Origin: an uncultured Thermoanaerobaculia bacterium | GTDB lineage: Bacteria > Acidobacteriota > Thermoanaerobaculia > Thermoanaerobaculales > Sulfomarinibacteraceae | Assembly (NCBI GenBank): GCA_964609835.1 | Contig: CAZSTH010000003.1 | Location: forward strand, 10,101-74,100 | Reading direction: 5' to 3' | DNA: 64,000 nucleotides | Shown here: in pieces, positions 2,979 to 33,318 of the stretch | Numbering within the stretch: position 1 is the first letter of the stretch | Layout of the letters: each line of letters begins with the position of its first letter | Notes under the pieces: generated by a model | Seen by the model: only the letters and a program-made list of their open reading frames with translations | Told to the model about the DNA's origin: nothing | Databases searched by the model: none | Position numbers and translations under genes: made by a program

Positions 2979-4472
2979 TCAGCGTGCCGGTTGCCCGCGC
3001 TCCTCGAGCCACTCCTGCATCTCTTTGACCCGCTTCGAGTGCGTGTAGTGGCCGTCGGCGAAGACCGCGTAGTCGCCGCCGCCGGCCATCGCCGCGGTGA
3101 AACGGATCGAGTTGGCATAGAACAGCCAGATATCGGCCCAACGGTGCTCGATCGCCTCGTCGAACGGGCTGCCACCGGCAGCCGGTCCCTCTGCAAGTCC
3201 CCGCTCCCAGACCTCCTTCAGGATCTGGGTCGCGGTGATCGTGGCGGCGTTGGTGGTCTCGTGACTCCGCTCGTAGCGGTCGAAGTGGCCGCGCACCCAG
3301 GCCTCGCCGTGGCAGGAGAGGCAGATCGCCGACATCGTCTTCCGCCTCCGCGCCTGCTCCTCGGCATCGATCAGGAACTCGGACGCCGGCGTGCCGTCGA
3401 GCGCCGTCGGCAGCGGCATGCCGTCCTTGTTGCGGATCTTCGTGGTGTCGGGATCCTTCGGGTGGGCGTGGGAGTACACGAGGCCGAAGATCCGCCACGC
3501 GATGCGGCCGTTCATGCCGTGGGTGCGCTCGGCGATCGTCTCACCGTCCGGGCTCACCAGCAGGCTGACGTGACAGGCCGCGCAGGTCGGGGCCGTGAAG
3601 TCGCGGCCAACCGTCCAGGGCACCACCTCGAAGTCCCATTCCTGCTTCTTCGAGTGGTAGATGTTGCCGTGCTTGCTCGCGGAGTAGACCTTGTAGACCG
3701 GCACGTCGGGGCCCACGTGGCACTCCTTGCAGGTGTAGGGCTTGCGTGCGATCTCGATGGCGAAGCTGTGCCTGGTGTGGCAGGCGGAACAGGAGCCCAA
3801 CGTGCCGTCCAGATTGACGCGGCCGACGCCCTGGTTGGGCCAGCCGGCGATCGCCGCGAACTCCATATCTCCGAAGTCGGTCTCACGGGTCTCGATGCCG
3901 GTGACCTCGAGGCGGGTGCCGTGGCAGTACAGGCAGCCCAGGGCCTCGGTCTCCGGGTCCGGCTCCCGGAACACCAGCCGCCCGCCGTCGCGAACCGGTA
4001 CTCCCAGGATGTTCCGCTCGAGGTCCTGGTAGAGCGCGTTGCCCTCGAGGTTGCCATGGGCGTGCGCCATGATGTTGCCGGCATACTGCTCCGCCTCCAC
4101 CGGGTGACAGACCGCGCAGTCGCCCGGGCTGACCACTGAGTGGACGCGGTAATCGTTGTGGTCGAAAACTCCCTCGTGCTGGTCCGGGCGCAGGGTGTGG
4201 CACTCGGCACATCCGACGACCACGCCGGCGAGGTCGCCCGGAATGTCATCGCTCGAGACCTTGCGGGAGAGTCCCTCGACCGCGGTGGCCGCTGCCGGGG
4301 TGATCGCAGCGTGTCGGCTCGACCTCCAGCCCGCCACGATTCCCGGGTGGAGCGACTCGTGACAGATCAGACAGGTCTCCGTGGCCTCGCTCACCGGTCG
4401 CGGTTCGTCAGCGGCGGCAGGCAGTGCGAGCAGGCAGGCGGCGAGGATCGGGGCGATGTGGACGGCTTTCAT
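2979..4472 (-). CDS. octaheme c-type cytochrome, hydroxylamine-oxidoreductase (HAO)-like family, secreted
   Basis: Signal peptide (MKAVHIAPILAACLLALPAAA). Eight CXXCH motifs: CLICH, CAECH, CAVCH, CLYCH, CSACH, CKECH, CAACH, CLSCH. Size about 500 aa. GGGGAGGGA RBS. Confidence 0.85.
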   Translation of the reverse strand: MKAVHIAPILAACLLALPAAADEPRPVSEATETCLICHESLHPGIVAGWRSSRHAAITPAAATAVEGLSRKVSSDDIPGDLAGVVVGCAECHTLRPDQHEGVFDHNDYRVHSVVSPGDCAVCHPVEAEQYAGNIMAHAHGNLEGNALYQDLERNILGVPVRDGGRLVFREPDPETEALGCLYCHGTRLEVTGIETRETDFGDMEFAAIAGWPNQGVGRVNLDGTLGSCSACHTRHSFAIEIARKPYTCKECHVGPDVPVYKVYSASKHGNIYHSKKQEWDFEVVPWTVGRDFTAPTCAACHVSLLVSPDGETIAERTHGMNGRIAWRIFGLVYSHAHPKDPDTTKIRNKDGMPLPTALDGTPASEFLIDAEEQARRRKTMSAICLSCHGEAWVRGHFDRYERSHETTNAATITATQILKEVWERGLAEGPAAGGSPFDEAIEHRWADIWLFYANSIRFTAAMAGGGDYAVFADGHYTHSKRVKEMQEWLEERGQPAR

Positions 4473-12757: not shown

Positions 12758-13019
12758 AGGCGCCGTCGGGGCGTGGCGCCCTCCTCCCGGCTGCCGCTCA
12801 CCGTCCCTGTCCACGGGCGCGCTCGCGTGCGCTCCAGGTTGTCGAGCGTTCTTGAGATTGCGGCTTTTGAGCAGACATGGAAGTGCATAACCAGTTCGAA
12901 ATATGGGTGTATACTGGCGGCGTGTTTCGTCTCGGAGTCTTCCGGGCATTCGGTGTCACGGCCTCCCCGGTCGCGGGCGATCGCCCCCCGGTGCGGTCTG
13001 GAGAGGAAGGGAGTGCGGC

Positions 13020-15572
13020 ATGACTCGTGAGCCGGTCGATCGATGGTTGCGGCTCGGGACGCTGGTTTTTTTCGGATTGGTGTTGCTCGCCGCGGCGCCG
13101 GCCGCTGCCCAGCACCCCGCCATCTACCTGGTGGACCACGACGGGGACATCATCGATCCCATCAACGGCGAGAACGCGGACGCGGCGTTCTCGGTCAAGC
13201 AGACTTGCGGGATGTGTCACGACTACGACGTCATCACCGAGGGCTACCACTTCCAGATGGGGTGGAACACGGTGTCAGACGATTTCGGCGCCGAGGAGGG
13301 ACGGCCGTGGAGCCTGTCCAACGGCTTCCTCGGGCGCTGGTACCCGTTCGCCTTCCGGCAGCTGGCGAAGAAGCAGAACGACCATCCCGACGAGATCGAC
13401 CTCACGGTCTACGACTTCGTCGGCTTCTCCTCACCGGGCCGGGGCGAGCCGCCGTGCGGCGCCTGCCACCCTGGCGGCGGCGGTCTCGAGTTCGACCGTG
13501 ATGGCAACCGCTACGACGAGCACCTCGCCGACAACCCTGAGCTCGCCGAGTCGCTCGACGGCGACTACCACCGGAGTGCTTGGGACCGAAGCGGGGTGGT
13601 CGAGGCCGACTGTCTGATCTGCCACCTCGCGGGCTACGACTTCGAGGCCAGGGTCGACCAGCTCAAGAACGGCAACTACCGCTGGGCGGTCGTCGCGGGC
13701 TCCCGCATCGGCACCGTCGACGGGGCGGTCCGCCGCGGCGGCGAGCCGAGCGTCACCTACCAGACGCGGCTCTTCAACGTCGACGGCACCATCACCCTCG
13801 ACATGTCGTGGCCGCCGCCGGATGACAACTGCATGTACTGCCACGGCTCTTCGGACGTCAAGAAGCGCGGCTTCTCCTGGAACGACATCTTCAACCCGGA
13901 CATCCATAACCAGCAGGGCGTCAGCTGCACCGCCTGCCACCCGGCGGGCCTCGACCACCAGATCGCCAAGGGCATCGAGCCGGCGTTCACCGTCGCGCCT
14001 GAGTACGACGGCAGCAACAAATCCTGCTCCGAGTGCCACATGGAGGGCTACCTCGGAGCGCCGGTGCCGGAGCACAACACAATCCGACCGGGCCACCTCG
14101 AGAAAATCCGCTGCGAGAGTTGTCACATTCCGCATCTCAATCGCGCGGCGGCGCACGGCCAGGAGGCCACCACCGGCAAGCTCGAGTTCTACACCCGTCC
14201 GGACGACGCCGAGGAGCCGGGCGTCGAGGGCCGCTGGTACCCGGACTACGAGCGTCGGGAGGACGAGAAGATCTACCCCATGAACCGCTTTCTGGCCGTC
14301 TACTGGGCCAACCGGGACGCGGACGGGCTCGTCTATCCGCTGTTCCTGCGCGAGCACGAGGCCGGTTGGAAGGCCTTCAAGCAGCAGGTCGTGGACGACG
14401 ACGAGGACGGCCATCTCGAGGTCAACCGCCACGAGGAGATCGTCGCCGGCCTCGAGGCCTTCGCCGAGACGCTCCAGGGCAACCGGCGATTCGAGCGGGT
14501 TCGTCCGGTGTTCATCAAATCGGAGACGGCCTACGAACTCGACGATGGCGGCATCCTGGTCGAGAGCCCGCTCGCGGGAACGCCGATGGAGGGGGCTTCG
14601 GAGGTCAAGTTCTCGATCAACCACAACACCGCTCCGACCCGCATGGCGCTCGGTGTCAACGGCTGCGAGGACTGCCACGTGGCGTCCGTGCATTTCTTCA
14701 AGGGCCAGCAAACGATCGACCTCCGCGGCCCCGACGGCACACCGGTGACGGTCTCCAACGGGCGCTTCTTCGGCTGCAACCCGTTGTCATTTCACATCAA
14801 CTCGATTCACCAGCAGATCGTCAGCCCATACATCGGACCAATGATCATGCTGGTGGCCTTCTTCATCGTCGTCCACTACCACAGCTACGGGCCCAAGCGC
14901 ATCACCTTCGACCCCTACTCCGAGGAAATCGAGCGCTTCAATCTCGCGGAACGCGGAATCCACCTCTTCCGGCTGATCTCGTTCGTGATCCTGGCGGTGA
15001 CGGGCCTGATCCTCGCTTTCAACCTCAACCTGTGGCAGCATCTGCTCTTCGGCAACGCCAAGAATCTCCACAGCTTCCACGTCTGGGCAGGGATCGTGTT
15101 CATCGTCACAACGCTCGGCGGCGCCCTGTTGTGGTTCCGGGATGCCTTCTTCGAGTCCTACGACAAGGACTGGGTGCGCAAGCTGGGCGGCTACCTCGGC
15201 CACAAGGGCGAGGTGCCGGCGGGCCGATTCAACGCCGGCCAGAAGATGTTCTATTGGTACTCGGGGATCTTCGGTATTTTGATGTCGATCACCGGAGTGA
15301 TGCTGATCTTCAAGGGCGCCTTCGCGCTGTCGACGGTCTGCATCACCTCGACCGTTCACAACCTCTTCGGCTTCTTCCTGATCGCGGGGGTGTTGGCCCA
15401 TGCCTACCTCGGGACGATCGCCAATCCGGGGACGTGGCGGGTGCTGATCGACGGTTCGGTGACCCGTGAGTGGGCCGAGCACCACCACCCGAACTGGTTC
15501 CGCGCCCTGCTGGAAGAAGAGCGAACGAACTCGCCTCCAGAACCCGAGGACGATGACTCCAACGAGACTTGA
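13020..15572 (+). CDS. fusion of a periplasmic octaheme c-type cytochrome domain to a C-terminal FdnI/HydC-type dihaem cytochrome b membrane domain (CbcL-like quinol oxidoreductase)
   Basis: Signal/TM segment. Eight CXXCH motifs: CGMCH, CGACH, CLICH, CMYCH, CTACH, CSECH, CESCH, CEDCH. Then four TM helices with FdnI-type motifs (RFNLAERGIHLFRL, RFNAGQKMFYW, VHNLFGFFLIAGVLAH = H-x13-H, EWAEHHHPNWF). GGAAGGGA RBS before the ATG at 13020. Confidence 0.85.
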   Translation: MTREPVDRWLRLGTLVFFGLVLLAAAPAAAQHPAIYLVDHDGDIIDPINGENADAAFSVKQTCGMCHDYDVITEGYHFQMGWNTVSDDFGAEEGRPWSLSNGFLGRWYPFAFRQLAKKQNDHPDEIDLTVYDFVGFSSPGRGEPPCGACHPGGGGLEFDRDGNRYDEHLADNPELAESLDGDYHRSAWDRSGVVEADCLICHLAGYDFEARVDQLKNGNYRWAVVAGSRIGTVDGAVRRGGEPSVTYQTRLFNVDGTITLDMSWPPPDDNCMYCHGSSDVKKRGFSWNDIFNPDIHNQQGVSCTACHPAGLDHQIAKGIEPAFTVAPEYDGSNKSCSECHMEGYLGAPVPEHNTIRPGHLEKIRCESCHIPHLNRAAAHGQEATTGKLEFYTRPDDAEEPGVEGRWYPDYERREDEKIYPMNRFLAVYWANRDADGLVYPLFLREHEAGWKAFKQQVVDDDEDGHLEVNRHEEIVAGLEAFAETLQGNRRFERVRPVFIKSETAYELDDGGILVESPLAGTPMEGASEVKFSINHNTAPTRMALGVNGCEDCHVASVHFFKGQQTIDLRGPDGTPVTVSNGRFFGCNPLSFHINSIHQQIVSPYIGPMIMLVAFFIVVHYHSYGPKRITFDPYSEEIERFNLAERGIHLFRLISFVILAVTGLILAFNLNLWQHLLFGNAKNLHSFHVWAGIVFIVTTLGGALLWFRDAFFESYDKDWVRKLGGYLGHKGEVPAGRFNAGQKMFYWYSGIFGILMSITGVMLIFKGAFALSTVCITSTVHNLFGFFLIAGVLAHAYLGTIANPGTWRVLIDGSVTREWAEHHHPNWFRALLEEERTNSPPEPEDDDSNET

Positions 15573-15751: not shown

Positions 15752-16702
15752 ATGGATTTCCAGGCTGCTGAAGCGGGGGAGCGCGGGCCCCAGTCGCTGG
15801 GGGATCGCGGTCATCGTGACGTCAATCACTCCTCCCGGTTCGAAATCGAACGCCGGCTAGCAGAGCTGGTGCCGACCGAGGACGTCCAGCCCGAACAATT
15901 GCACCGGGCGATGCGTTACAGCCTGCTCGCCGGCGGCAAGCGCATCCGGCCTTTGATGACGATCGAGGTCGCGGCAGCTTTCGGCGGACCGCTGCAGGCT
16001 GCCCTCGACCCCGCCTGCGCCGTCGAGATGATCCACACCGCATCGTTGATCTTCGACGACATGCCGTGCATGGACGATGCGGTCCTGCGACGCAACAGGC
16101 CGACCAATCACCGAGTCTTCGGTGAGGACGTGGCGACGCTGGCGGCCACCTCGCTGTTGAACCGGGCGTTCGGAGTGGTTGCCGACAGCCACCATCTCGA
16201 TCCCGATGTTCGGGTGGTGCTGGTACGGGTCCTGTCCGAGGCGGTGGGGAGCCAAGGCATCATCGCCGGTCAGTTCAGCGACCTGCGCTCAGATTGGGCG
16301 AGCTGCAGCGATGCGTCCGACCTGCTCCAGATGTACGGGCAGAAGACCGGTGCCCTTTTCGTCGCCGCCGTCGAGGCAGGGGCCCGGGTCGCCGGTGTCG
16401 AAGAAGCCTGGGTCGGGGCCGTGCGGAGGTTCGCGGTCGACCTCGGTCTCGCATTCCAGATCCTCGACGACCTCCTGGACCTCTACAGCACCGAGGACCA
16501 CCTCGGCAAGGACATCGGCCAGGATCGTGACAAGACCACGGTTGTGTCGTTCCTGGGCCCGGACCGGGCGCGGGTCGAGGTCTGCCGATACATTCGATCG
16601 GCGGTGGCGGCCCTCGGACCGCTCGGCGATTCCGCGGCGCCGCTGATCGACCTCGCGAAGTCCTACACCGAACCCACGATGGAGCGTGTACTCTACCTCT
16701 GA
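15752..16702 (+). CDS. crtE: geranylgeranyl diphosphate synthase (polyprenyl synthetase)
   Basis: GGKRIRP. First Asp-rich motif IFDDMPCMDD. Second motif FQILDDLLD. Lies in a carotenoid cluster. Confidence 0.85.
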   Translation: MDFQAAEAGERGPQSLGDRGHRDVNHSSRFEIERRLAELVPTEDVQPEQLHRAMRYSLLAGGKRIRPLMTIEVAAAFGGPLQAALDPACAVEMIHTASLIFDDMPCMDDAVLRRNRPTNHRVFGEDVATLAATSLLNRAFGVVADSHHLDPDVRVVLVRVLSEAVGSQGIIAGQFSDLRSDWASCSDASDLLQMYGQKTGALFVAAVEAGARVAGVEEAWVGAVRRFAVDLGLAFQILDDLLDLYSTEDHLGKDIGQDRDKTTVVSFLGPDRARVEVCRYIRSAVAALGPLGDSAAPLIDLAKSYTEPTMERVLYL

Positions 16703-18960: not shown

Positions 18961-19494
18961 GTGGTGGTCTGGATACAAATCGGGATCGTCGTGGCGACCG
19001 TGGTGGCGATGGAGGGCATCGCATACCTCATGCACAAGTACCTCATGCACGGCCCCCTGTGGTTCCTCCACGAATCGCACCACGTGCGGCGAAAGGGCCG
19101 CTTCGAGCTCAATGATCTGTTCGGGGTGTTCTTCGCGATCCCCTCGGTCATCCTGATCTACCTCGGGACCCATGGAGCGCCGGTGTTGCTCGCGGTCGGT
19201 CTCGGTATGACCGCCTACGGCATCATCTACTTCGGCTTCCACGATGTCATCGTTCATCGCCGGGTGCCGCACGGTGTGCGGCCAGGGAGCGGGTACCTGC
19301 AGCGCATCATCAAAGCCCACCGCATTCACCATGCCACGCGCAGCAGAGACGGTGCGGTGTCGTTCGGCTTCATCTACGCGCCGCCGATCGAGAAGCTGGT
19401 CGCGAAACGCGAACGAGTGAACCCATCGTCCTCGTTCGAACCACAGAGCCGCGGAGCGCACAGAGCGGCACCGAGCATCAGAAAATCTCTGTGA
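18961..19494 (+). CDS. crtZ: beta-carotene 3-hydroxylase
   Basis: His boxes HKYLMHG..LHESHH, HDVIVH, HRIHH. About 175 aa. GGGGAGG RBS before the GTG. Confidence 0.85.
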   Translation: MVVWIQIGIVVATVVAMEGIAYLMHKYLMHGPLWFLHESHHVRRKGRFELNDLFGVFFAIPSVILIYLGTHGAPVLLAVGLGMTAYGIIYFGFHDVIVHRRVPHGVRPGSGYLQRIIKAHRIHHATRSRDGAVSFGFIYAPPIEKLVAKRERVNPSSSFEPQSRGAHRAAPSIRKSL

Positions 19495-20488
19495 ATCGCT
19501 CTGGGATCTCTGGGTCTCTATGGTGATCGTTCGTCGATGAACGGTTTGAGGACCTGACAACCGGTCGTGTCCAGAGTCCACTTCGTGGCGCCGCGTCCGG
19601 CCCCGGCCCCCAGGCCGTGGCCGTCAGCGCCCGCATGCCGCCGCCGAGCGCGAGCAGCAGCTTACGCCCCTTGCCGGTCGAGGCGCGCCGGTCCCAGGCA
19701 GCGGGACCGCGCTTCAGAATCAGGCGCCCGATGTCGCGGTAGACCGCGCGCGCGGCGGCGATCGCCCACGCCGAACGGAACGGCAGCCGCGCGATGCCGG
19801 CACGGGCCGAGTCGTAGTAGCGTTCGGCCTCCGCCAGTGCCCGCTGGGCGACCCCGGCGAGCGCGCTGCGGTGAGCTTCACCGGCGACATCGTCGACCGG
19901 AATGCCGGCCGTCGCGAGCCAGTCCTCCGGCAGGTACACGCGGCCGACCTCCGCGTCCTCGACCACGTCGCGACAGATGTTCGTGAGCTGGAACGCGATG
20001 CCGAGGTCGGTTGCCCGGTCGAGGGTCGGCTCGTCGCGAACGCCCATGACGTAGGCCATCATCACCCCGACCACACCCGCCACGTGGTAGCAGTACTCGA
20101 GTGTGTCATCGAGGTTCCGGTAGCGGCGTCCCGCAACATCCATGTCGAAGCCGGCGAGGTGCTCGAACGGGTAGCGATCGGGAATCTCGTGACGGAGCAC
20201 CACGCGCTGCAGGCCTGCGAAGGCCGGCTCGAGGTCGGTGGCACCGTCGAGCGCCCGGCGGGTTGCCTCGCGCAGACCTTCGACGCGCGCGCGAGCCTCT
20301 TCGCCGCCGATCCTGCGAGCACCGAAACCGAGCTCCTGGTCGTCGGTCTGGTCATCGCAGTGGCGGCACCATGCGTAGAGCAGCGAGGCGCTGGCGCGGG
20401 TGGCGGGGTCGAAGAGGCGTGAAGCTGCCGCGAAGCTCTTCGAGCCCTTTTTGATCACGGTGTGGCTCTGCCGCACGAGCTCGTCCAT
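19478..20488 (-). CDS. crtB: phytoene synthase
   Basis: SKSFAAASRLF, YAWCRHCDDQTDD, YCYHVAGVVG, NICRDVVEDAEVGRVYLP. ATG at 20488. The 3' end overlaps the crtZ 3' end by 17 bp (convergent). Confidence 0.9.
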   Translation of the reverse strand: MDELVRQSHTVIKKGSKSFAAASRLFDPATRASASLLYAWCRHCDDQTDDQELGFGARRIGGEEARARVEGLREATRRALDGATDLEPAFAGLQRVVLRHEIPDRYPFEHLAGFDMDVAGRRYRNLDDTLEYCYHVAGVVGVMMAYVMGVRDEPTLDRATDLGIAFQLTNICRDVVEDAEVGRVYLPEDWLATAGIPVDDVAGEAHRSALAGVAQRALAEAERYYDSARAGIARLPFRSAWAIAAARAVYRDIGRLILKRGPAAWDRRASTGKGRKLLLALGGGMRALTATAWGPGPDAAPRSGLWTRPVVRSSNRSSTNDHHRDPEIPERFTEIF

Positions 20489-20496
20489 GGCTGCCT

Positions 20497-21993
20497 TCAG
20501 CGTTCGCTGCCCAGCAGGTCGGGGATCATCAGCCCGGCAGTCGCCTTGGCCGAGTTGACGACGCCGGGAACCCCGGCCCCGGGATGCGTTCCCGCTCCGG
20601 CGAAGTAGAGCCCCCCGATCCTGCGGTCGCGGTTGTGGACGCGGAACCAGGCACTCTGGGTGAGGATCGGCTCGAGTGAAAAGGCCGACCCGAGGTGCGA
20701 ATTGAGCACGTTCTTGAAATCGTCCGGAGTAAGGATTCGGACGGTTTCGAGATCGGATCCGAGGTTCGGGATGTACCGTTCTTCCAGGTAGTCGAGGATC
20801 CGGTCGCGGTAACGCGGCCCCTCCTCGCTCCAATCGATAGGTGCATTGCCGAGATGCGGGACCGGTGACAGCACGTAGAAGGCCTCGCAGCCCTCCGGCG
20901 CGACCGAGGGGTCGGTGAGCGTCGGTGCGTGCAGGTAGAGAGAGAAGTCGTCAGCGAGGCCGCGGCTGCCGAAGATGTCGTCGAGCAGGCTCTTGTAGCG
21001 GGGTCCGAAGATGATGTCGTGGTGGGCGAGCCGGGTGTGGCGGCGCCGAACCCCGAAGTAGGCCACGAAGAGCGACATGCTGAAGCGCTTGCGCTCGAGC
21101 CGGTTCGCCTCCTGTTGCGCCGCAGGGTGATCCTCGAGGAGCGTCCGGTAGGTGTGGATGACGTCGGCATTGGAGGCGACGGCATCGAAGTCGGCGCTCC
21201 AACCGTCGGCCGTGCTGAGCCCGGTGACCCGTCCGTTGGCGGTGTGAATCCTCTCCACTGGAGCGTTGAGCCGCACCTCGCCGCCGAGCTCCTCGAAGAG
21301 GGTGACCATCGCGCGGACCAGCGCACCGGTGCCGCCCTTGACGAAGAACACGCCCCAATTGCGTTCGAGGTAGTGGATTAGGGTGTAGATGGACGAGGAG
21401 GTGAAGGGATTGCCGCCCACCAGCAGCGGATGGAAGCTGAAGACCTGGCGCAGCGACTCGTCCTTGATGAATTTGGAGATGATGGAGTAGACGCTGCGGT
21501 AGCTCTGCAGCCGCATCAGCTGCGGCGACACCCGGATCATGCTCCAGAAGTCGAGAAACGGTGTTGCCGCGAGCTTGGTGTAGCCCTCGTGGAAGACGTC
21601 CTCGGCGTAGTCGAGAAACCGCAGGTAGCCGTCGACGTCGGCCGGGTTGCGCTCCGCGATCTGCGCGGTGATGGCCTCCATGTCGTTGGAGTAGTCGAAG
21701 CTCGTGCCGTCCTCCCAGTACAGCCGGTAGAACGGCATGACGGGCAGCAGCGTCGCGTAATCGTAAAGGTCGCGGCCGGCGGCCGCGAAGACCTCCTCGA
21801 TGCTCGGAGGTGCGGTGATGATGGTCGGGCCGCCGTCGAAGCTGTAGCCCTTGTCCTCGTAGACGTAGGCGCGGCCGCCGGGCTTGTCCCGTTTCTCGAT
21901 CAGGGTCGTGTCGATGCCCGCGGCCTGGAGCCTCACCGCCAAAGTGAGGCCTCCGAAGCCGCTGCCGATCACGGCTGCTCTGGGGCGAGTCAT
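20497..21993 (-). CDS. crtI: phytoene desaturase
   Basis: N-terminal VIGSGFGGL FAD motif. About 498 aa. C-terminal GAGTHPGAGVPGV. Confidence 0.9.
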   Translation of the reverse strand: MTRPRAAVIGSGFGGLTLAVRLQAAGIDTTLIEKRDKPGGRAYVYEDKGYSFDGGPTIITAPPSIEEVFAAAGRDLYDYATLLPVMPFYRLYWEDGTSFDYSNDMEAITAQIAERNPADVDGYLRFLDYAEDVFHEGYTKLAATPFLDFWSMIRVSPQLMRLQSYRSVYSIISKFIKDESLRQVFSFHPLLVGGNPFTSSSIYTLIHYLERNWGVFFVKGGTGALVRAMVTLFEELGGEVRLNAPVERIHTANGRVTGLSTADGWSADFDAVASNADVIHTYRTLLEDHPAAQQEANRLERKRFSMSLFVAYFGVRRRHTRLAHHDIIFGPRYKSLLDDIFGSRGLADDFSLYLHAPTLTDPSVAPEGCEAFYVLSPVPHLGNAPIDWSEEGPRYRDRILDYLEERYIPNLGSDLETVRILTPDDFKNVLNSHLGSAFSLEPILTQSAWFRVHNRDRRIGGLYFAGAGTHPGAGVPGVVNSAKATAGLMIPDLLGSER

Positions 21994-23186
21994 GATCCTG
22001 CCTCCTCATTCGCGTGCTGGGTTGATTGCCGTCGCCTGGCCGGGCTCGGTTCGACCACGCACCGGAGTGCGCGGAGGATCGGGACCGGCGGCTTGCCGAT
22101 CAGCACCCGCAGCTTGTCGATCCATCCCAACCGCCCGGCGTAGAACCTCTCGATGAGCCCGCCGGGAAGCCCGTAGAAGCGCTCGAAGATGCGGTAGCGC
22201 TGATTCGGCTCGGCGGCCAGGAAGAGCATCCGGTTGAGGAGTCGGAAGTACGCGTTGCGGCGCCAGAGATCCAGCGACCTCCGTTGGCAGAGCCCGAAGA
22301 GGCTCGCAGCGTCGCGGACTCCCACCCGTGCGATCTCGTCGGCCAGGCGCACGGCTTCGAGCAGGGAGTATCCCGTGGTCGGGTGGAACAGCGCCGCGCG
22401 CATGCCGCTGCGGGGCACGTCGTTCGCTCCGTCGGACCAGAACGCTTGGATGTCACCGCCGAGCGTGATCGGCAGCACTCCGGCCTCCTCGCCCGTAATC
22501 TCGGCGATCCGCCACCCCCGGCGGTCGGCGTAGGCTCGAATGCCGTCGCGCAGGCGCTGGCGGTCGAGGGCGGTCGTGTCGCTGTAGTAGGTGTCCTCGA
22601 TCAGCAGCTCGCGGCCGCTGAACGGCAACGTGTAGACGAAGCGGTATCCGTCGCGCTGAACAACGGTGGCGTCCATCAGGATCGGCCCGGCGAGCCCGCA
22701 CTCCTCCTCCAGCCGCACGAAAAGGCCGACGAACTTCTGGTAGCGAACGTCGAGCCAGGAGCTGCCGGGGTGGCCGCGGCCATCGATGACGGCCCTGCCT
22801 CCGATCACCGTGCCGTCAGCGAGCGACACCGATGTCGGCTGGACGTCGACGATCTCGGCGTTGGTCAGCACGCGGTTGCCGAGAACGGCGCCGACCACGT
22901 GGTGGAGGCGGCTCGACGAGATCGAGTTGTACCCTCGCGGGATCACCCGGCGCCGTTCTGGGAAGTGCAGCTCGTGCTGCGGCCAGGAGTGGGCCACCAC
23001 AGGCGCCAGCCACGCCCGCTCCTGCGCGTCGAGATCGCTGTCGTGAAATGACCACGTGTGGTTGCCGCCGAGGGTGGGGCCGCGCTCGATGACCCGCAGC
23101 TCGATCTCCGGCCGTACGGTCGCCAGCCGGTACGCGATCAGGCTGTTGGCGAGCCCGCCGCCGGCCAGGATTAGGTCGAGGTTCAC
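21990..23186 (-). CDS. crtY: lycopene beta-cyclase
   Basis: DLILAGGGLANSLIAYRL, HTWSFH, FHPTTGYSL. The GTG start overlaps the upstream gene's stop (GTGA). Its own stop overlaps the crtI ATG (ATGA). Confidence 0.85.
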   Translation of the reverse strand: MNLDLILAGGGLANSLIAYRLATVRPEIELRVIERGPTLGGNHTWSFHDSDLDAQERAWLAPVVAHSWPQHELHFPERRRVIPRGYNSISSSRLHHVVGAVLGNRVLTNAEIVDVQPTSVSLADGTVIGGRAVIDGRGHPGSSWLDVRYQKFVGLFVRLEEECGLAGPILMDATVVQRDGYRFVYTLPFSGRELLIEDTYYSDTTALDRQRLRDGIRAYADRRGWRIAEITGEEAGVLPITLGGDIQAFWSDGANDVPRSGMRAALFHPTTGYSLLEAVRLADEIARVGVRDAASLFGLCQRRSLDLWRRNAYFRLLNRMLFLAAEPNQRYRIFERFYGLPGGLIERFYAGRLGWIDKLRVLIGKPPVPILRALRCVVEPSPARRRQSTQHANEEAGS

Positions 23187-23740
23187 CGATCCGCCGCCAG
23201 CCGCTCGACCTCGGCGGCCACGGTGGCCGCGAGTTGGGGATCGTGACGGCCCTCGAAGGCGGCAGCCAGCGTGCCATCGGCCCGCATCAGAAGGAGGTTG
23301 GGGCGGCTGGTGTCGAGCCCGAGGGTGGTGCTCCAAAATCCGTTCATGTCGATCAGCACCTGCACCTCCTCCGGCACCCGCTGGGCGAGCTTCTCCGCCA
23401 CCCGTTCGTAGGTCGTCGGCGGCTCTCGCGGCACGTCGGCGATCCGCAGGTAGTCGAGATCGCCGAAACGCCCGCGGAGGTCACGCTCCCAGACCTTGAG
23501 CGTGCGCAGGCGCCTGGCGTCCACCACCATGACCACTACCGGCCGGCCGCGATGGGCGGCGAGGCTGTCGGTGCCGCCCCGCAAATCACGAAGCTCGAGG
23601 GCGGCGAGCGGCTTCAACGACGGCTGCTCCGCGGCGGCGGTTGCGGCGAGGCAGGAGACGAGCAGCGCTCCGATCAGCCGCCGGTGCCAGGACCCGCCGT
23701 CCACCTCACGTCTCTGCGACGCTCTGCCGGCTCTCTTCAC
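23183..23740 (-). CDS. secreted thioredoxin-fold (TlpA/AhpC-like, no CXXC) protein translationally coupled to crtY
   Basis: Signal-like LIGALLVSCLAATAAA. The redoxin-like beta-alpha pattern (GRPVVVMVVD...) lacks an active-site Cys pair. Start uncertain (GTG 23740 or ATG 23809). Confidence 0.55.
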   Translation of the reverse strand: MKRAGRASQRREVDGGSWHRRLIGALLVSCLAATAAAEQPSLKPLAALELRDLRGGTDSLAAHRGRPVVVMVVDARRLRTLKVWERDLRGRFGDLDYLRIADVPREPPTTYERVAEKLAQRVPEEVQVLIDMNGFWSTTLGLDTSRPNLLLMRADGTLAAAFEGRHDPQLAATVAAEVERLAADR

Positions 23741-28205: not shown

Positions 28206-28934
28206 TCAGTAGAGGTATGGCCTTCGCGGTGGCCGGATTCGCATGATCCGATCGATCCGAAGGCGGATCGTGGCCCGCCTGTCGTGATCCTCGAAAGCAA
28301 CGGTGCCGTCGGCCCGGACCCAGGTGTCGTCCGGCCATTCCTCGGGTACGTCCCCGGTGACAGCCACGGCGACGGGTACGGCGTCTGCAACGCAGCACGT
28401 CATGACGAAGCGGTACAGCAGGGTGGCATCGGGCCCGAAGTCCCCCGTCAACTCCGGTGCGTGCGTGATCATGCCGTCGACCCTGACTCGGTGGCCGTCG
28501 TAGTGTCTGGCTTTCCTCCAGAGGTCGGCGAGCGTGGCGGCGCGCAGACCGTCCGACGCCGCCGCAGCCGCCTGGTCGACGAGCGGCGGGCCGTCCGAGG
28601 CTCCACTCTGTTCAAATCCAGTCCACCGCTTTTCGAAAGCACGGCTGTCGAGCACGACATCGCTGGCAATCGGGAGGTACACCAGGGGAGCTGCGAGCAC
28701 GAGCCACCGCATCGCCTCCGGAAACGAGGGTCGTTCGGGGTCGCTCGATCGACCCATCTCCGCGAGGGCGAAGCCGACAAGCGTCAGGACGCCCAAACCC
28801 AGAAGCCATGCAAAATCCGGTCGCAAGAACGTCTCATGACCCCGATCGCCAAGTAAACGGCCCAATGCATAGAACCAGGCTCCGTACAGAAGCACGCGCC
28901 AGTAACGTCGTGGAACGGAGAACAGGCCCTTCAC
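28206..28934 (-). CDS. TIGR03943/DUF1980-family protein (second subunit of a two-component permease)
   Basis: Two N-terminal TMs. C-terminal domain with the VMTCCVADA motif. The GTG start overlaps the permease stop (GTGA). Confidence 0.75.
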   Translation of the reverse strand: MKGLFSVPRRYWRVLLYGAWFYALGRLLGDRGHETFLRPDFAWLLGLGVLTLVGFALAEMGRSSDPERPSFPEAMRWLVLAAPLVYLPIASDVVLDSRAFEKRWTGFEQSGASDGPPLVDQAAAAASDGLRAATLADLWRKARHYDGHRVRVDGMITHAPELTGDFGPDATLLYRFVMTCCVADAVPVAVAVTGDVPEEWPDDTWVRADGTVAFEDHDRRATIRLRIDRIMRIRPPRRPYLY

Positions 28935-30037
28935 GGCGCCAGAACCCCCGAGACTTCGAGGACGACACTCACGAACAACACCGCCAACAGAATCGCGGTC
29001 GCCAGGACGGCGATCGCACGCCGGGTGAACAGTGTCCGGTACATCAGCAGAAGCTTCAGGTCGAACATCGGGCCGGTCAGCATGAACGCGATCTGGGCGG
29101 GCAGGGGAAGGAGGCCCCGGAAGGAGGCCGCGATGAAGGCGTCCGCCTCGGAGCAGAGATTCAACAGAATCGCCAGAGCCATCATGGTGAGCGAGGGAAG
29201 CACCGGCAACGCGGCGAACTCGAGGACGGATCGGCGTTCAAGCACCGTCTGCGCAAACCCGGCGATCGCGGCGCCGATCACCAGATAATGAGCAACCGTC
29301 AGGAAGTCGTCCGACGCGTGGCGGAGGGCCTGCAGCATGCGCCTGGCAAGGGGAGTGCCGTGCGCAGGCTCCCCATGGTCATGCGAGCAGCCATGGGATG
29401 ACTGCCCCGATGCGTGCTCGTCCTTGATGAACGCGCTGCGATCGGAGAACACCCGCCCCATCAGCAGTCCCACAGCCACTGCAATGACGTAACCGCAGCC
29501 GAGTCGCGCGGCGACGACGCGCCAGTCGAACGCATACGCCAGGGCGGTCGACGTCCCCACGATCGGGTTGACGATCGGGCCGGCGAGCAAGTAGGCGATG
29601 GCCCCTGACAGCGGCAACCCCTTCCGTGTCAGCCGACGGACCACCGGAACGACGGCGCACTCACACAGCGGGAAGACCAGCCCCAGGGCTGCCGACATGC
29701 AGGTCACGGCCCAGGGACGCCGCGGCAGGCGAGCCATCAGACGCTCTCGGCTGACGAATACCTCGATGAGTCCGCCGACGCCCGAACCGATGAGCATGAA
29801 GGGCAGTGCCTCCAGGACGATGCTCAGAAAGACCAGGGCGAAGGTCTGCACACCGGCGTCCCGGCCACCTACCAGGGGGAGGCACAGAAAGGCAAGGGCC
29901 GCTGACGCGACGAGCGCGTTCCTCCAGAGGGACGGTTGAGGCGGTGGCCGAAGATCCGCCCTGTCGCAGCATGCCGGGCGGTGGTCACGATGCGAGGATG
30001 GATCAACAGGCTGAGTTGCCGGTCGGGAAGAGGTCAT
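28931..30037 (-). CDS. DUF318-type permease (putative metal permease, partner of DUF1980)
   Basis: Polytopic. Motifs FPLCECAVVP and LAGPIVNP. The ATG at 30037 overlaps the znuB stop (ATGA). Confidence 0.75.
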   Translation of the reverse strand: MTSSRPATQPVDPSSHRDHRPACCDRADLRPPPQPSLWRNALVASAALAFLCLPLVGGRDAGVQTFALVFLSIVLEALPFMLIGSGVGGLIEVFVSRERLMARLPRRPWAVTCMSAALGLVFPLCECAVVPVVRRLTRKGLPLSGAIAYLLAGPIVNPIVGTSTALAYAFDWRVVAARLGCGYVIAVAVGLLMGRVFSDRSAFIKDEHASGQSSHGCSHDHGEPAHGTPLARRMLQALRHASDDFLTVAHYLVIGAAIAGFAQTVLERRSVLEFAALPVLPSLTMMALAILLNLCSEADAFIAASFRGLLPLPAQIAFMLTGPMFDLKLLLMYRTLFTRRAIAVLATAILLAVLFVSVVLEVSGVLAP

Positions 30038-30882
30038 CCCTCGACCCGACGCCATATTCGTTTGCCGACCAGCGCCACGAGGTAGGTTGCGCCGGCGACC
30101 TGGATCACCGTCGCCCCGGTGGGAAGCTCCGGACCGTAGCTCAGAACGATGCCGCCGAGCGTGAACAGGAAGCACAGCGCGGACGCTCCGAGCATCGCGC
30201 TCCACAGGCGCCGCGCGAACTGCAGGGCCGTCGCGGCCGGCAGCGTCAGCAGGGCGATCACCATCACCAGGCCCACCACCTGGGTCAGGAGGACCACCGT
30301 CAGCGAGATCAACACGAGCAGCAGCGTGTGATAGAAGCCGACGGGAATGCCGCGCAAGCGGGCCAGCTCGGGCTGAAAGCTGATGACGAGGAACTTGTCA
30401 TAAAAGAGCAGCATCAGCGCGACGATGACTGCGTCCAGCACGACCATGTGGCCGAGGTCGGAGGAGCCGACCATCAGGATGTTGCCGAACAGGTAGCTCA
30501 TCAAGTCTTCGGAGTACCCCGGTGTCGCCGTGATGAAGCTGATGCCAATCGCCATCCCGAGCGCCCAAATGGCGGACAGCACAGTGTCCTCGCGTTGCCG
30601 TCCCGATTCGGTGACGACCGCGATGATCAGCGCCGCGACCACCGCCGCGACGGTTGCACCGAGGAGGGGGGTCGACCACTCGATGCCGTGGACGCGCTGC
30701 AGGTAACGCGCCGCCCCCATGCCCCCGAGAACGCAGTGCGCGATGGCGCCGGCCACGTACGTTGTGCGTCGTACCACGACGAAGCTCCCGACGACGCCGC
30801 ACGCCACCGACGCCAGCAGGCCGGCCAGGACTGCGTACTGGAGGAACGCGTGCTTCAGGAGGTGCTCCCAGAACAGGCTCAC
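30034..30882 (-). CDS. znuB: zinc/manganese ABC transporter permease
   Basis: ABC-3 family pattern (FLQYAVLAGLL...GAIAHCVLGG...). GTG start 2 nt after the znuC stop. Confidence 0.85.
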   Translation of the reverse strand: MSLFWEHLLKHAFLQYAVLAGLLASVACGVVGSFVVVRRTTYVAGAIAHCVLGGMGAARYLQRVHGIEWSTPLLGATVAAVVAALIIAVVTESGRQREDTVLSAIWALGMAIGISFITATPGYSEDLMSYLFGNILMVGSSDLGHMVVLDAVIVALMLLFYDKFLVISFQPELARLRGIPVGFYHTLLLVLISLTVVLLTQVVGLVMVIALLTLPAATALQFARRLWSAMLGASALCFLFTLGGIVLSYGPELPTGATVIQVAGATYLVALVGKRIWRRVEG

Positions 30883-30884
30883 GG

Positions 30885-31685
30885 CTAGGCCTCCTCGCCG
30901 TGGTGCAGCTCGTCCATGGCGTCGGCAGGGTCGAGAACGTGACAGCTCGGATCGTGCTGGAGCACCGTCATATCTCCGCGGTGAAAGGCATGCAGCTCGC
31001 CCGCGGTGAGGTTGTCGACGCGGGTAAGCGACGCCGTGCGGTTCACGCACGCGACGTGCGAGGCATGGCGGGTCACCACGTTCAGGTTGTGCGAGACGAC
31101 AACGATCGTCATACGTTCATTGAGTTCGTGCAGTAGCTCGTAGATCTCGTGCTCGACGGCCGTGTCCACGTTGGCGGTGGGCTCGTCGAGCAGCAGGAGA
31201 TCGGGATCCGACGCCAACGCCTGCGCGATCAGCGCACGCTGGCGCTCGCCGCCGGACAGCTGTGCGAGGGAACGTCGGCTCAGGTGCCCGAGGCGCACAC
31301 GCTCCAGCGCCCGGGTGGCTTTTTCGCGGTCAATCCGGCGGAACGGGCCCAGCCAGTGTCGATCCACCCGCCCCATGAGCACGACGTCTAATGCGCTCAC
31401 CGGAAACTGCGCATCGAAGGCGAGGTGCTGGGCAACGTAGCCGATCCCTCTTCGTCGACGCTCCGGCGCGTTGCCGAAGACCCGGACCGTCCCTCGCTGA
31501 GGTTTCATCAGACCCAGCGCCAACCTGACCAGTGTCGTCTTGCCGCCTCCATTGGGGCCAACCACCGCCACGAGGCTGTTCTCCGGCACCGACAGCTCGA
31601 CGTTGTGCAAGACCTCCTCGCGGTCATAGGCAAAACAGACACCACTGAACTGGAGTGCGGCTCGAGTGCTCACGTTCTGGCTCAC
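30885..31685 (-). CDS. znuC: zinc ABC transporter ATP-binding protein
   Basis: Walker A GPNGGGKTT. LSGGERQR. LLLLDEPT. Confidence 0.85.
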   Translation of the reverse strand: MSQNVSTRAALQFSGVCFAYDREEVLHNVELSVPENSLVAVVGPNGGGKTTLVRLALGLMKPQRGTVRVFGNAPERRRRGIGYVAQHLAFDAQFPVSALDVVLMGRVDRHWLGPFRRIDREKATRALERVRLGHLSRRSLAQLSGGERQRALIAQALASDPDLLLLDEPTANVDTAVEHEIYELLHELNERMTIVVVSHNLNVVTRHASHVACVNRTASLTRVDNLTAGELHAFHRGDMTVLQHDPSCHVLDPADAMDELHHGEEA

Positions 31686-31704
31686 AGCGTCTCCGAACCT
31701 CTCA

Positions 31705-32694
31705 TCACTCTTGTTTTTGGAGCGCCTCGTGAATCGCCGCCGCGACTCCTTCCAGATTGGCTACGTAGTCTCGCGCGAGGGGATCGATGGGCACCACGGC
31801 GCCGTCGATGGCCTCGGCAACCCGCTCGGCCGAGCTCGTGCTGAACTGGGGTTGGACGAAGATCATGCGCACGCCTTCGCTCTTCGCCATTTCGATCACC
31901 CGGGCAAGCTGCTGCCCGCTCGGGTCCTTCCCCTCGATCTCGATGGGTGTCTGCTCGAGCCCATAGGCATCGGCGAAGTAGCCCCAGGCCGGGTGGAACA
32001 CCATGAAGGTTTTCCCCTTGACCGGCGCCAGCGCCTCGACGAGGTGGGCGTCGAGCGCGTCCAGATCCTCGACAAAGGCAGCAAGGTTCTTCTCATAGGT
32101 CGCCCTGCCCGCCGGGTCGACGTCGATCAGCGCATCCGCGATGGTCCGGGCCTGGACCTTCACGAGCCGGGGGCTGAGCCAGATGTGCGGATCAGTGCCG
32201 CCGTGGTGGTGGTGATGCTCTTCTTCGGCGTGGTGGTTGTGTGCTTCGGAATGCTCGGCATCATGGGCGTTGTGCTCATGAGCGTGACCGTGTTCATGGT
32301 GCTCTTCCTGGTATCCGCCGTTGCCGTTATGATGGGCCTTCATCTCGCGAAGCGTGATCCCCTTGCGCGTGTCGACGATCCGAGGTCCCTTCGCCATCCC
32401 TTCGATCTTCGGGACGAAGGCGTTTTCGAACGGCACGCCGATGCGGAAGAAGATCGTCGCCTCGGACAGGGCCGCCATCTGGCGCGGCGTGGGCTCGTAG
32501 GTCGCGGGACTGCTGCCCGGCGTCACCAGTGCCTGCGCCCGGACCCGATCGCCGCCGACCCGCTCGACGAAGTGCTCCTGGGGCAGGATGCTGGTGAAGA
32601 CGGTGATCCTGATCTCATCTGCTGCGAAGCCAACGGTCGGGAGCGTGCAGAGAATCCCCAGGATCAGACACTCGGCCCTTCTGCTGCAGTTCAT
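31705..32694 (-). CDS. znuA: zinc ABC transporter substrate-binding lipoprotein with His-rich loop
   Basis: Cluster-9 SBP pattern (PHIWLSP). Long His/Glu/Asp loop (HHNGNGGYQEEHHEHGHAHEHNAHDAEHSEAHNHHAEEEHHHHH). The ATG overlaps the zur stop. Confidence 0.9.
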   Translation of the reverse strand: MNCSRRAECLILGILCTLPTVGFAADEIRITVFTSILPQEHFVERVGGDRVRAQALVTPGSSPATYEPTPRQMAALSEATIFFRIGVPFENAFVPKIEGMAKGPRIVDTRKGITLREMKAHHNGNGGYQEEHHEHGHAHEHNAHDAEHSEAHNHHAEEEHHHHHGGTDPHIWLSPRLVKVQARTIADALIDVDPAGRATYEKNLAAFVEDLDALDAHLVEALAPVKGKTFMVFHPAWGYFADAYGLEQTPIEIEGKDPSGQQLARVIEMAKSEGVRMIFVQPQFSTSSAERVAEAIDGAVVPIDPLARDYVANLEGVAAAIHEALQKQE

Positions 32695-33167
32695 GTCGCA
32701 TTTCCTCTCTTGAGTTCCGTTTTGGTCGGGGGCTCATCACCGTGTTCCAGACAGTCCGGGCAGTGGCCTCGGATCTCCACCGACGCCTTCTCGACTGACT
32801 GGGCCCACGGCCCGTCCACCGACATCGAAGCGGTCAGCTCGACCGGCAGACAGGCAACCCGACCGCAGTCTTCGCACACGAAGTGCGGATGGCGGTGCAC
32901 GGCGCCCCCGGGCGGCGCCAGGGCGTATCGATCGATGCCCTCGGCGCGGGAGACGACGGGTGCAATGCCGGCTTCGCGCAGCTTTACGAGGTTGCGGAAG
33001 ACCGTTGCCGGATCCCAATCCGTGTCCCCGAGTCGGGCGAGCACGTCGCCGCAGGAGAGCGGGCCGTCCGATTCGGCCAGTACGCGAAGCACCGCAAGTC
33101 GCGGCGCCGTCGCTCGTAGGCCACGCTCGTGCAGGATTGCTCGCGCTTTGTCCCTGGTGATGTCCAT
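32691..33167 (-). CDS. zur: Fur-family zinc uptake regulator
   Basis: Winged-helix N-terminus (RATAPRLAVLRVL). HRHPHFVCEDCG and CPDC Zn-site motifs. First gene of the znu operon. Confidence 0.85.
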   Translation of the reverse strand: MDITRDKARAILHERGLRATAPRLAVLRVLAESDGPLSCGDVLARLGDTDWDPATVFRNLVKLREAGIAPVVSRAEGIDRYALAPPGGAVHRHPHFVCEDCGRVACLPVELTASMSVDGPWAQSVEKASVEIRGHCPDCLEHGDEPPTKTELKRGNAT

Positions 33168-33203
33168 ACCGCCTCCCCGAACGATGGACCGGCGACCAGC
33201 GTC

Positions 33204-33232
33204 ATTGTAGGGGAAATGACTTGCATCTGCAA
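33204..33232 (-). promoter_or_regulatory. sigma70-type promoter of the zur-znu operon (TTGCAG-17-TACAAT)
   Basis: On the minus strand: TTGCAG (33232-27), a 17-nt spacer, then TACAAT (33209-04), about 35 nt upstream of the zur ATG and its GGGGAGG RBS. Confidence 0.6.
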
Positions 33233-33276
33233 ATCGTTTGCGTTACGATCTCGGCTCAATTGCCCAGATGCAAGTC
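33218..33276. promoter_or_regulatory. 12-bp perfect inverted repeat in the divergent zur / COG0523 control region (candidate Zur operators)
   Basis: GACTTGCATCTG (33218-29) and CAGATGCAAGTC (33265-76). The left arm lies in the spacer/-35 of the zur promoter. Confidence 0.5.
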
Positions 33277-33318
33277 GTATGCATCAAGGCGATACATCGG
33301 CAAGAAAAGGGAGACACC

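Follow-up and report, generated by a model that had tools for sequence, protein, structure and literature searches.

The known inner-membrane points at which electrons enter or leave in extracellular or periplasmic electron transfer, CymA, ImcH, CbcL/MtoC and CbcBA, come from a few Proteobacteria and Desulfuromonadia. Here we describe a gene at 13020..15572 on the forward strand of a 64,000-nucleotide stretch of DNA from an uncultured Thermoanaerobaculia bacterium (GenBank assembly GCA_964609835.1, contig CAZSTH010000003.1, positions 10,101 to 74,100; the whole stretch is hereafter called the window). Its product is an 850-residue membrane protein that joins eight periplasmic c-type haems to an FdnI-type dihaem cytochrome b. 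Inner-membrane bc-type gates between the quinone pool and the periplasm are known as a kind, and the octahaem-FdnI family to which this protein belongs adds an uncharacterised variant. We propose, at a probability of roughly 0.6, that the protein is a bc-type electron gate made of one polypeptide, which sits in the inner membrane between quinone pool and periplasm and probably oxidises menaquinol.

Among the closest described systems are the membrane subunit FdnI of Fdn-N and the Geobacter protein CbcL. In the Fdn-N structures (1KQF/1KQG), H57 and H155 of FdnI bind the periplasmic-side haem bP and H18 and H169 the cytoplasmic-side haem bC, while N110, G112, Q113 and H169 line the site for menaquinone or 2-heptyl-4-hydroxyquinoline N-oxide (HQNO) at the cytoplasmic face. 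CbcL (GSU0274) is described as a protein of 619 aa in which nine CXXCH motifs fall between aa 34 and 257; its periplasmic domain, 250 residues long and mostly disordered, spends 28 residues on each haem, the haems are all bis-His, and there are six transmembrane helices between aa 285 and 611 (PMC6295460; PMC9129911). The survey of Zhong & Shi (2018) lists 138 members of the CbcL/MtrH/MtoC group; its sampled entries carry 9-21 closely spaced motifs, and the sole Gemmatimonadetes entry has 951 aa, 19 haems and six transmembrane helices (PMC6295460). The octahaem-FdnI family is absent from every sampled entry of that table, and the family member of Gemmatimonas sp. SG8_17, already public then, is missing from the table (PMC6295460).

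The enclosing open reading frame (ORF) in the window runs from 12903 to 15572 (+), and the ATG at 13020 yields the 850-aa product; the G+C content at third codon positions of the ORF is 0.88, like that of neighbouring genes. More than 120 collinear full-length homologues of ~850 aa are spread over many phyla, and we therefore regard the sequence as a single gene and not as a mis-joined pair of ORFs, a possibility raised in an earlier account of this DNA that was made from its letters alone (the sequence-only reading). That account described one 850-aa protein with a signal and eight CXXCH motifs, which the ORF and the motif count bear out: there are exactly eight motifs, at aa 63, 146, 198, 271, 303, 336, 365 and 549. 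Invariance within the subfamily was scored on an alignment of 47 homologues (56-82% identity), and all eight motifs, four membrane His residues and the RFNAGQK loop are invariant in 47 of the 47, which argues that the CXXCH motifs are not there by chance. The signatures quoted in the sequence-only reading (ERFNLAERGIH, RFNAGQK, VHNLFGFFLIAGVLAH with its H-x13-H spacing, and EWAEHHHPNWF) were likewise all found. It had also spoken of four helices; the four-helix FdnI domain stands, but the total does not, as five hydrophobic helices follow the haem domain (~aa 599-620, 646-673, 685-706, 746-771 and 773-801), the first of which is an extra transmembrane helix that we call TM0. The parts in order are a signal peptide, a ~568-aa periplasmic octahaem domain, TM0 and the four-helix FdnI domain. 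Conservation beyond the subfamily was scored across 80 distant relatives of the octahaem domain. The features, with the evidence for each, are as follows.

13020..15572 (+): whole coding sequence, 850 aa plus stop; ORF list and full-length collinear homologues
13000..13013 (+): purine-rich ribosome-binding-like stretch GGAGAGGAAGGGAG, 6 nt before the ATG; read from the sequence
13020..13109 (+): Sec-type signal peptide, aa 1-30, with probable cleavage between AAA and Q; hydropathy about aa 8-32
13110..14813 (+): periplasmic octahaem c-type cytochrome domain, aa 31-598; eight invariant CXXCH, weak NrfA/OTR/MmcA similarity
13206..13220 (+): haem 1 motif CGMCH, aa 63-67; in ~82% of distant relatives
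13455..13469 (+): haem 2 motif CGACH, aa 146-150; in only 34% of distant relatives
13611..13625 (+): haem 3 motif CLICH, aa 198-202; 100% conserved in distant relatives
13830..13844 (+): haem 4 motif CMYCH, aa 271-275; 100% conserved in distant relatives
13926..13940 (+): haem 5 motif CTACH, aa 303-307; aligns to the haem-4/5 region of NrfA
14025..14039 (+): haem 6 motif CSECH, aa 336-340; motif search, 47-homologue alignment and distant relatives
14112..14126 (+): haem 7 motif CESCH, aa 365-369; motif search, 47-homologue alignment and distant relatives
14136..14615 (+): beta-rich insertion between haems 7 and 8, aa 373-532; strands in the AlphaFold2 (AF2) model, block mean confidence (predicted local distance difference test, pLDDT) 73-94
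14664..14678 (+): haem 8 motif CEDCH, aa 549-553; last motif before the membrane
14814..14882 (+): extra transmembrane helix TM0, aa 599-621; hydropathy, and a continuous helix 588-621 in the AF2 model
14874..14897 (+): motif H-Y-H-x-Y-G-P-K at the end of TM0, aa 619-626; invariant in 47/47 homologues
14922..15527 (+): FdnI-type four-helix dihaem cytochrome b domain, aa 635-836; TIGR01583, PF01292 and 1kqf_C
14961..14963 (+): His648, counterpart of FdnI His18, haem bC ligand; alignment, invariant
15078..15080 (+): His687, counterpart of FdnI His57, haem bP ligand; alignment, invariant
15225..15245 (+): RFNAGQK loop, aa 736-742, counterpart of FdnI Y109-N-A-G-Q-K114; alignment, invariant
15357..15359 (+): His780, counterpart of FdnI His155, haem bP ligand; alignment, invariant
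15399..15401 (+): His794, counterpart of FdnI His169, haem bC ligand and quinone-site residue; alignment, invariant

The likeness of the membrane part to FdnI is seen at the level of profile, structure and single residue. The domain passes TIGR01583, the NCBIfam equivalog model named "formate dehydrogenase subunit gamma", with 143.7 bits against a curated cut-off of 115.85, and matches PF01292 over aa 639-804 (E 2e-18, 67.3 bits vs a cut-off of 30.1). The top solved-structure match by sequence is E. coli FdnI (1kqf_C), with E values of 5e-19 (single sequence) and 2.8e-27 (profile), and Foldseek on the full AF2 model returned 1kqf_C as the sole match with E <= 0.001 (E 1.7e-6, TM score 0.77). 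These profile scores, the alignment to FdnI with all four His ligands conserved and the fold match confirm the FdnI-type dihaem b assignment of the sequence-only reading. In the residue-level alignment N738, G740 and Q741 pair with FdnI N110, G112 and Q113, and the RFNAGQK loop is a predicted cytoplasmic-side menaquinone site. The protein thus shares with FdnI the four-helix dihaem b fold, the four His ligands, the N-A-G-Q-K loop, the H-x13-H of helix IV and the cytoplasmic C-terminal W-A-x-H-H-P-x-W helix. Unlike FdnI, to which it is only ~25% identical, it is fused through an extra transmembrane helix to a periplasmic octahaem domain, comes without FdnG/FdnH partners and carries the HYHxYGPK linker, which is invariant in the subfamily and lacking in FdnI.

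The predicted topology agrees with this picture. Covalent attachment of c-type haem is periplasmic, so the octahaem domain must lie in the periplasm, and as the N-terminus of FdnI is cytoplasmic, TM0 has to carry the chain from the periplasmic to the cytoplasmic side. Lys and Arg are concentrated in segments predicted to face the cytoplasm (the stretch following TM0, the NAGQK loop and the C-terminal tail), and this positive-inside pattern fits the FdnI topology. The HYHxYGPK motif is cytoplasmic and is not conserved in distant relatives; it might help to form a quinone or proton-entry site. By analogy only, TM0 would occupy the topological place of the single C-terminal FdnH anchor in Fdn-N, and no sequence similarity between the two was found that would support homology. 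We also considered split relatives as evidence of an FdnH/FdnI-like origin and dropped them. At locus L088 (6001-8506) a 656-aa multihaem gene overlaps a 189-aa FdnI-type gene that starts at profile position 22, ~845 aa in total; the pair is most likely a frameshifted copy of the fused gene (an assembly error or a pseudogene) and not a true split. At L087 the 190-aa gene that lies downstream is unrelated to FdnI.

For the periplasmic domain, no close relative was found in curated libraries or the PDB. Weak profile matches were obtained to MmcA (TIGR04314; E 7e-15, 54.8 bits vs a cut-off of 250), to the OTR octahaem model (TIGR04315; E 3e-7, 29.9 bits vs a cut-off of 375), to NrfB and to the haem-4/5 region of NrfA (E ~1e-3), and the same MmcA/OTR/NrfA pattern recurs in relatives. 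Judged by these matches, the periplasmic module appears to be a distant relative of the NrfA/OTR/MmcA group, with which it shares the weak similarity over the haem 3-7 core and a similar ratio of residues per haem; its scores lie far below the cut-offs, however, it has no CXXCK, and a beta-rich insertion and a membrane anchor have been added. The motifs are spread over aa 63-553, up to 184 residues apart, and the domain has ~71 residues per haem. Haems 3-8 together with His296, 313, 352, 359 and 535 are 99-100% conserved in the distant relatives, and about 72-82% of them have haem 1, H32 and H77. Haem 2 belongs to an insertion specific to the subfamily (about aa 80-150), in which the invariant K118 is found as well; haem 2 co-varies with K118 and has no distal His assigned to it. 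Within the subfamily seven non-motif His residues are invariant and H597 is conserved at 94%, which makes all-bis-His ligation of the eight c-haems possible. The full-length AF2 model has a pLDDT of 69.8 overall and below 50 in the haem-binding stretches; the beta-rich insertion is the best-predicted part of the periplasmic domain, and a run on that domain alone (13 sequences) gave an unusable model with a pLDDT of 46. An exhaustive search with the octahaem domain alone recovered relatives amounting to 846 representatives at 50% clustering. These show three architectures: fusion to TM0 and the four-helix domain (~750-860 aa, some >1000 aa), a single C-terminal transmembrane helix (~600-680 aa, usually seven haems), and soluble forms.

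The sequence-only reading had likened the protein to CbcL with eight rather than nine haems. The design it had in mind, a periplasmic multihaem cytochrome on a quinone-reactive b-type anchor, holds; the description as a slightly smaller CbcL does not, given the differences in size, haem spacing, transmembrane helices and identity. In both families an N-terminal periplasmic multihaem c-type part is joined by a transmembrane link to a dihaem b domain, of the PF01292 superfamily, at the C-terminus; both occur beside MtrAB/MtoAB-type conduits, and they probably do the same job. However, CbcL packs nine haems into 250 residues and has six transmembrane helices, whereas the 850-aa protein has eight haems over ~568 aa, a beta-rich insertion, five transmembrane helices by hydropathy and a canonical FdnI domain. 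At the sequence level the comparison uses published coordinates, one legible CbcL fragment and the CbcL-type paralogues of loci L005 and L006 as proxies for GSU0274. Such paralogues adjoin family members in L005, L006, L018, L021, L038 and L088, loci that come from several phyla, and three of them are located as follows.

L005 6966-9749 (-): CbcL-type paralogue adjoining a family member
L006 7158-9938 (+): CbcL-type paralogue adjoining a family member; six transmembrane helices in the sequence
L088 3046-5823 (+): CbcL-type paralogue adjoining a family member

The CbcL-type paralogues have 19-21 CXXCH motifs in ~925-985 aa and match the legible CbcL fragment at 52% identity (E 7e-15), to which the 850-aa protein has no match. 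Against the L005 and L006 paralogues the 850-aa protein aligns by BLASTP only in the b domain, at 21-23% identity (E 1e-8 to 4e-6), and its haem domain gave no significant match to them. In addition, a CbcL-type paralogue scores 34.6 bits on TIGR01583, below the cut-off for FdnI, and both paralogue and CbcL fragment have a loop of the RWTYWEKFDY type in place of RFNAGQK. By these sequence comparisons the octahaem-FdnI and CbcL families appear as distinct paralogous families of one superfamily, and the adjacency of their genes suggests a division of labour between two bc-type gates of the quinone pool.

What the protein may be connected to is indicated by the neighbourhoods of its relatives. 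We surveyed 51 full-length loci, scored by haem motifs, 26 of them with at least 8 kb on both sides. In 36 of the 51, the flanks that are available show neither a multihaem nor a porin nor a paralogue gene as neighbour; among the 26 well-flanked loci, 20 stand alone and 6 have a cytochrome, conduit or paralogue as neighbour. An order of MtrA-like decahaem cytochrome, ~2.3-kb gene and family member is found in L012 (Acidobacteria, 72% identical), L015 (GN15), L037 (Ignavibacteriales) and L002 (Zixibacteria); L005 also has a decahaem and an MtrB/PioB-like porin beside the family member, and in L048 (Zixibacteria) a decahaem stands equally far upstream, with no such outer-membrane protein flagged. 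Scored against the DmsE/MtrA model, the decahaems reach 227 and 218 bits, above its cut-off of 192, and the ~2.3-kb middle gene encodes a signal peptide and the C-terminal Phe typical of outer-membrane proteins, one homologue matching PF11854 (MtrB_PioB). The same clusters also hold TetR regulators and further multihaem cytochromes. In mtr and mto clusters CymA, MtoC or MtrH hold the equivalent position (PMC5566968; PMC6295460). The window protein itself has no such neighbours: as the sequence-only reading had noted, no conduit, formate dehydrogenase or hydrogenase partner adjoins the gene, and the whole 64-kb window contains no formate dehydrogenase, hydrogenase, molybdoenzyme or porin-cytochrome genes. 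Its suggestion that the protein is self-contained holds to the extent that the gene is alone in the window, but in orthologues of up to 72% identity the gene shares its operon with those for an MtrA-like decahaem and an MtrB/PioB-like porin. Partners of the window protein probably exist unlinked to its gene; named homologues of the partner outer-membrane protein were found in Acidobacteria and Vicinamibacteria only, with none in Gemmatimonadota-labelled genomes, and this homologue search gave no evidence for unlinked partners in the lineage of the window itself.

By homology to FdnI, electrons would pass from the quinone site at the cytoplasmic face to haem bC (H648/H794), then to haem bP (H687/H780) and on to c-haem 8, which as the last motif before the membrane is the presumed contact of haem bP, and from there along the chain to c-haem 1. 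The octahaem domain would replace the FdnH/FdnG electron-input module, with TM0 in the role of the FdnH anchor. Menaquinol would be oxidised at the cytoplasmic face and its electrons would leave towards the periplasm, the direction being less certain than the path. As the membrane potential pushes electrons outwards from a site on the cytoplasmic side, this outward step would be helped by the potential and would dissipate proton-motive force, and menaquinol could thereby reduce low-potential bis-His haem chains. Reverse, FdnI-like reduction of quinone would be feasible only with strongly reducing donors. Likely partners are periplasmic or outer-membrane multihaem cytochromes; orthologues in other phyla are co-operonic with MtrA/DmsE-family decahaems and MtrB/PioB-like porins. 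The seven invariant non-motif His residues and H597 could serve all eight haems, in keeping with a relay rather than an enzyme. The proposed role, from the menaquinone pool to periplasmic multihaem carriers, and the position in mtr/mto-like clusters are the same as for CymA/NapC/NirT and ImcH. Those proteins are, however, non-homologous and all-c-type, with a single or three transmembrane helices and a quinol site on the periplasmic side, whereas a dihaem b with a cytoplasmic-side quinone site would imply different bioenergetics.

We favour export with quinol oxidation, although several observations weigh against this reading. Both the direction of the gate and its partners are points that we infer. 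The link to extracellular electron transfer (EET) is one of guilt by association from a minority of loci, because 20 of the 26 well-flanked loci, like the whole window, lack a cytochrome or porin neighbour; the conduits that do occur beside orthologues have no obvious MtrC-like outer cytochrome and resemble the MtoAB/PioAB (uptake) type. Moreover, ~71 residues per haem and a beta-rich insertion are more like NrfA/OTR enzymes than like CbcL with its 28 per haem, haem 2 with the nearby K118 has no distal His assigned, and the periplasmic AF2 model is too poor for haem geometry to be read. The serious rival, which we nevertheless consider unlikely, is electron uptake in the direction native to FdnI. 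Low-potential electrons would enter by the haem chain and be passed to menaquinone on the cytoplasmic side, and proton-motive force would be built up in the manner of Fdn-N; the electrons might come from a cathode-like mineral, from Fe(0), from a syntrophic partner, or from a hydrogenase or dehydrogenase in the periplasm. FdnI itself works in the quinone-reducing direction, and its quinone site and haem ligands are fully conserved in the 850-aa protein. The MtrAB-only conduits and the presence of the family in Syntrophobacterales and Desulfobaccales would suit uptake as well, as would the proposal that CbcL/MtoC-type proteins work in both directions (PMC6295460). On the other side, electrons coming from the periplasm to reduce quinone on the cytoplasmic side would have to move against the membrane potential, Fe(II) is an unlikely donor because donors well below the potential of menaquinone are needed, and no hydrogenase or dehydrogenase is linked to the family in the 51 loci. 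A smaller rival, less probable again, makes the protein a one-polypeptide respiratory enzyme, a reductase or dehydrogenase for a soluble N or S compound, in which a catalytic octahaem domain like those of NrfA, OTR or ONR is linked by the FdnI domain straight to the quinone pool and needs no further partners. The residues-per-haem ratio and the confidently predicted beta-rich insertion would fit such an enzyme, as would the weak but repeated similarity to OTR, MmcA and the haem-4/5 region of NrfA, also seen in relatives, and the lack of cytochrome neighbours for most copies, the window copy included. The active-site haem of OTR is Lys-ligated, and haem 2 with the invariant K118 could be read in this light; a version in which the FdnI anchor bears an NrfA/OTR-like octahaem whose haem 2 has unusual ligation and whose beta domain binds the substrate is, in our estimate, a shade more doubtful than the enzyme reading as a whole. 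Scores of 29.9 against 375 and 54.8 against 250 bits speak against catalysis, as do the lack of CXXCK or any other atypical haem motif in the 850-aa protein, the sufficient number of candidate distal His residues for all eight haems, the co-operonic porin-cytochrome conduits of close orthologues and the lack of a structural match, the full-model Foldseek search having matched FdnI only.

Two further explanations concern what the protein would be called. That it is the Geobacter CbcL (Cbc1) orthologue with one haem fewer is very improbable: it has the domains in the order seen in CbcL, a periplasmic multihaem c part ahead of the PF01292-superfamily b part, and BLASTP to a CbcL-type paralogue reaches E 1e-8 over the b domain, but the length, motif range and transmembrane helices of CbcL all differ, paralogues with 19-21 haems stand beside family members and share 21-23% identity in the b domain only, one of these scores 34.6 bits on TIGR01583 as opposed to 143.7, and the family is absent from the sampled entries of the survey (PMC6295460). 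That it is a genuine formate dehydrogenase gamma subunit we regard as scarcely credible. The equivalog model is passed, and the JGI and NCBI pipelines name homologues "formate dehydrogenase (subunit) gamma", a name that arises because the C-terminal third passes TIGR01583. However, neither the window nor the flanks of the 51 surveyed loci contain FdnG/FdnH-type genes, gene tables read for some of the relatives' loci list none, no conserved non-cytochrome neighbour emerged from the haem-motif survey, and where FdnH would sit there is instead a 600-residue octahaem extension. The name is misleading, as no FdnG/FdnH genes accompany the family and the octahaem domain (~600 residues) is ignored by it.

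The family extends over at least 10 mostly uncultured lineages at 25-83% identity, and its constant architecture across them points to a conserved core function. Full-length members occur in metagenome-assembled genomes (MAGs) whose labels are Thermoanaerobaculia (at 79% identity), Gemmatimonadota, Methylomirabilota, other Acidobacteriota and Holophagae. They also occur in MAGs labelled GN15, Ignavibacteria, Fibrobacteraceae, Zixibacteria and Delongbacteria, in Desulfobaccales and Syntrophobacterales MAGs at ~47% identity, and in Planctomycetota, Brocadiia, Nitrospiraceae and Hydrogenedentes MAGs at 25-36% identity. There are no cultured isolates among the full-length matches; isolates such as Methylobacterium match through true FdnI only. 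Full-text searching found no description of the family in the literature.

If the preferred reading as a quinone-pool gate is right, the family would add another class of inner-membrane electron entry and exit points, one found widely in Acidobacteriota, Gemmatimonadota-like lineages, Zixibacteria, Ignavibacteria, Desulfobaccales, Planctomycetota and others, and scoring of metagenomes for EET by CbcL, ImcH or CymA markers alone would miss it. An FdnI anchor with a cytoplasmic-side site predicts electron export helped by the membrane potential, or else energy-conserving uptake, and the frequent CbcL-type paralogue suggests that labour is divided by redox potential or direction, as in Geobacter. 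Were the enzyme reading true instead, the gene would be a one-gene respiratory branch from the quinone pool to a soluble N or S compound, present in widespread uncultured soil and sediment phyla.

The MtrB/PioB-like barrel genes beside the MtrA-like decahaems show a feature of their own. Directly after "...FDG" they contain a conserved in-frame TGA (L012 3723-3725; L002 and L003 9156-9158; L005 2564-2566 (-); also L015, L018, L021 and L037), and in most of these loci the barrel gene lies upstream of an octahaem-FdnI orthologue. The stop codon after FDG is TGA in 8/8 loci from four phyla, the frame past it runs for 137-157 codons to the C-terminal Phe of an outer-membrane protein, and a small hairpin lies ~21 nt 3' of the TGA, with compensatory changes at two pairs. 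In all 57 database homologues of the barrel the called protein stops at the TGA, with no Cys at that position in any of them; one CXXCH motif occurs in the N-terminal part of the barrel protein. By sequence pattern this looks like selenocysteine or programmed read-through, a conserved split gene being the alternative.

In the window the cytochrome gene is flanked by alanine racemase upstream and by polyprenyl synthase, ABC transporter and carotenoid genes downstream. The only other c-type cytochrome gene of the window, at 2979-4472 (-), encodes a 497-aa protein with eight CXXCH motifs, a PF13447 match and a weak match to the hydrazine dehydrogenase model (57.8 vs 900 bits). The sequence-only reading had connected this octahaem protein, 8.5 kb away, with the one described here; we reject a functional link, as no relative of the 850-aa protein, close ones included, keeps such a neighbour. 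Just downstream, at 15752-16702 and 18961-23336, lies a carotenoid-type cluster with genes for a polyprenyl synthase, a CrtZ-like member of the fatty-acid-hydroxylase family, an amine-oxidase/phytoene-desaturase-like protein and a lycopene cyclase, in which we see no relation to the cytochrome. Further along, the window contains genes of an ordinary kind, a metal-uptake cluster at 28931-34554 (ArsP-like permease, ABC-3 permease, ZnuA and a CobW-family GTPase) and a TonB-dependent receptor at 36249-38495.

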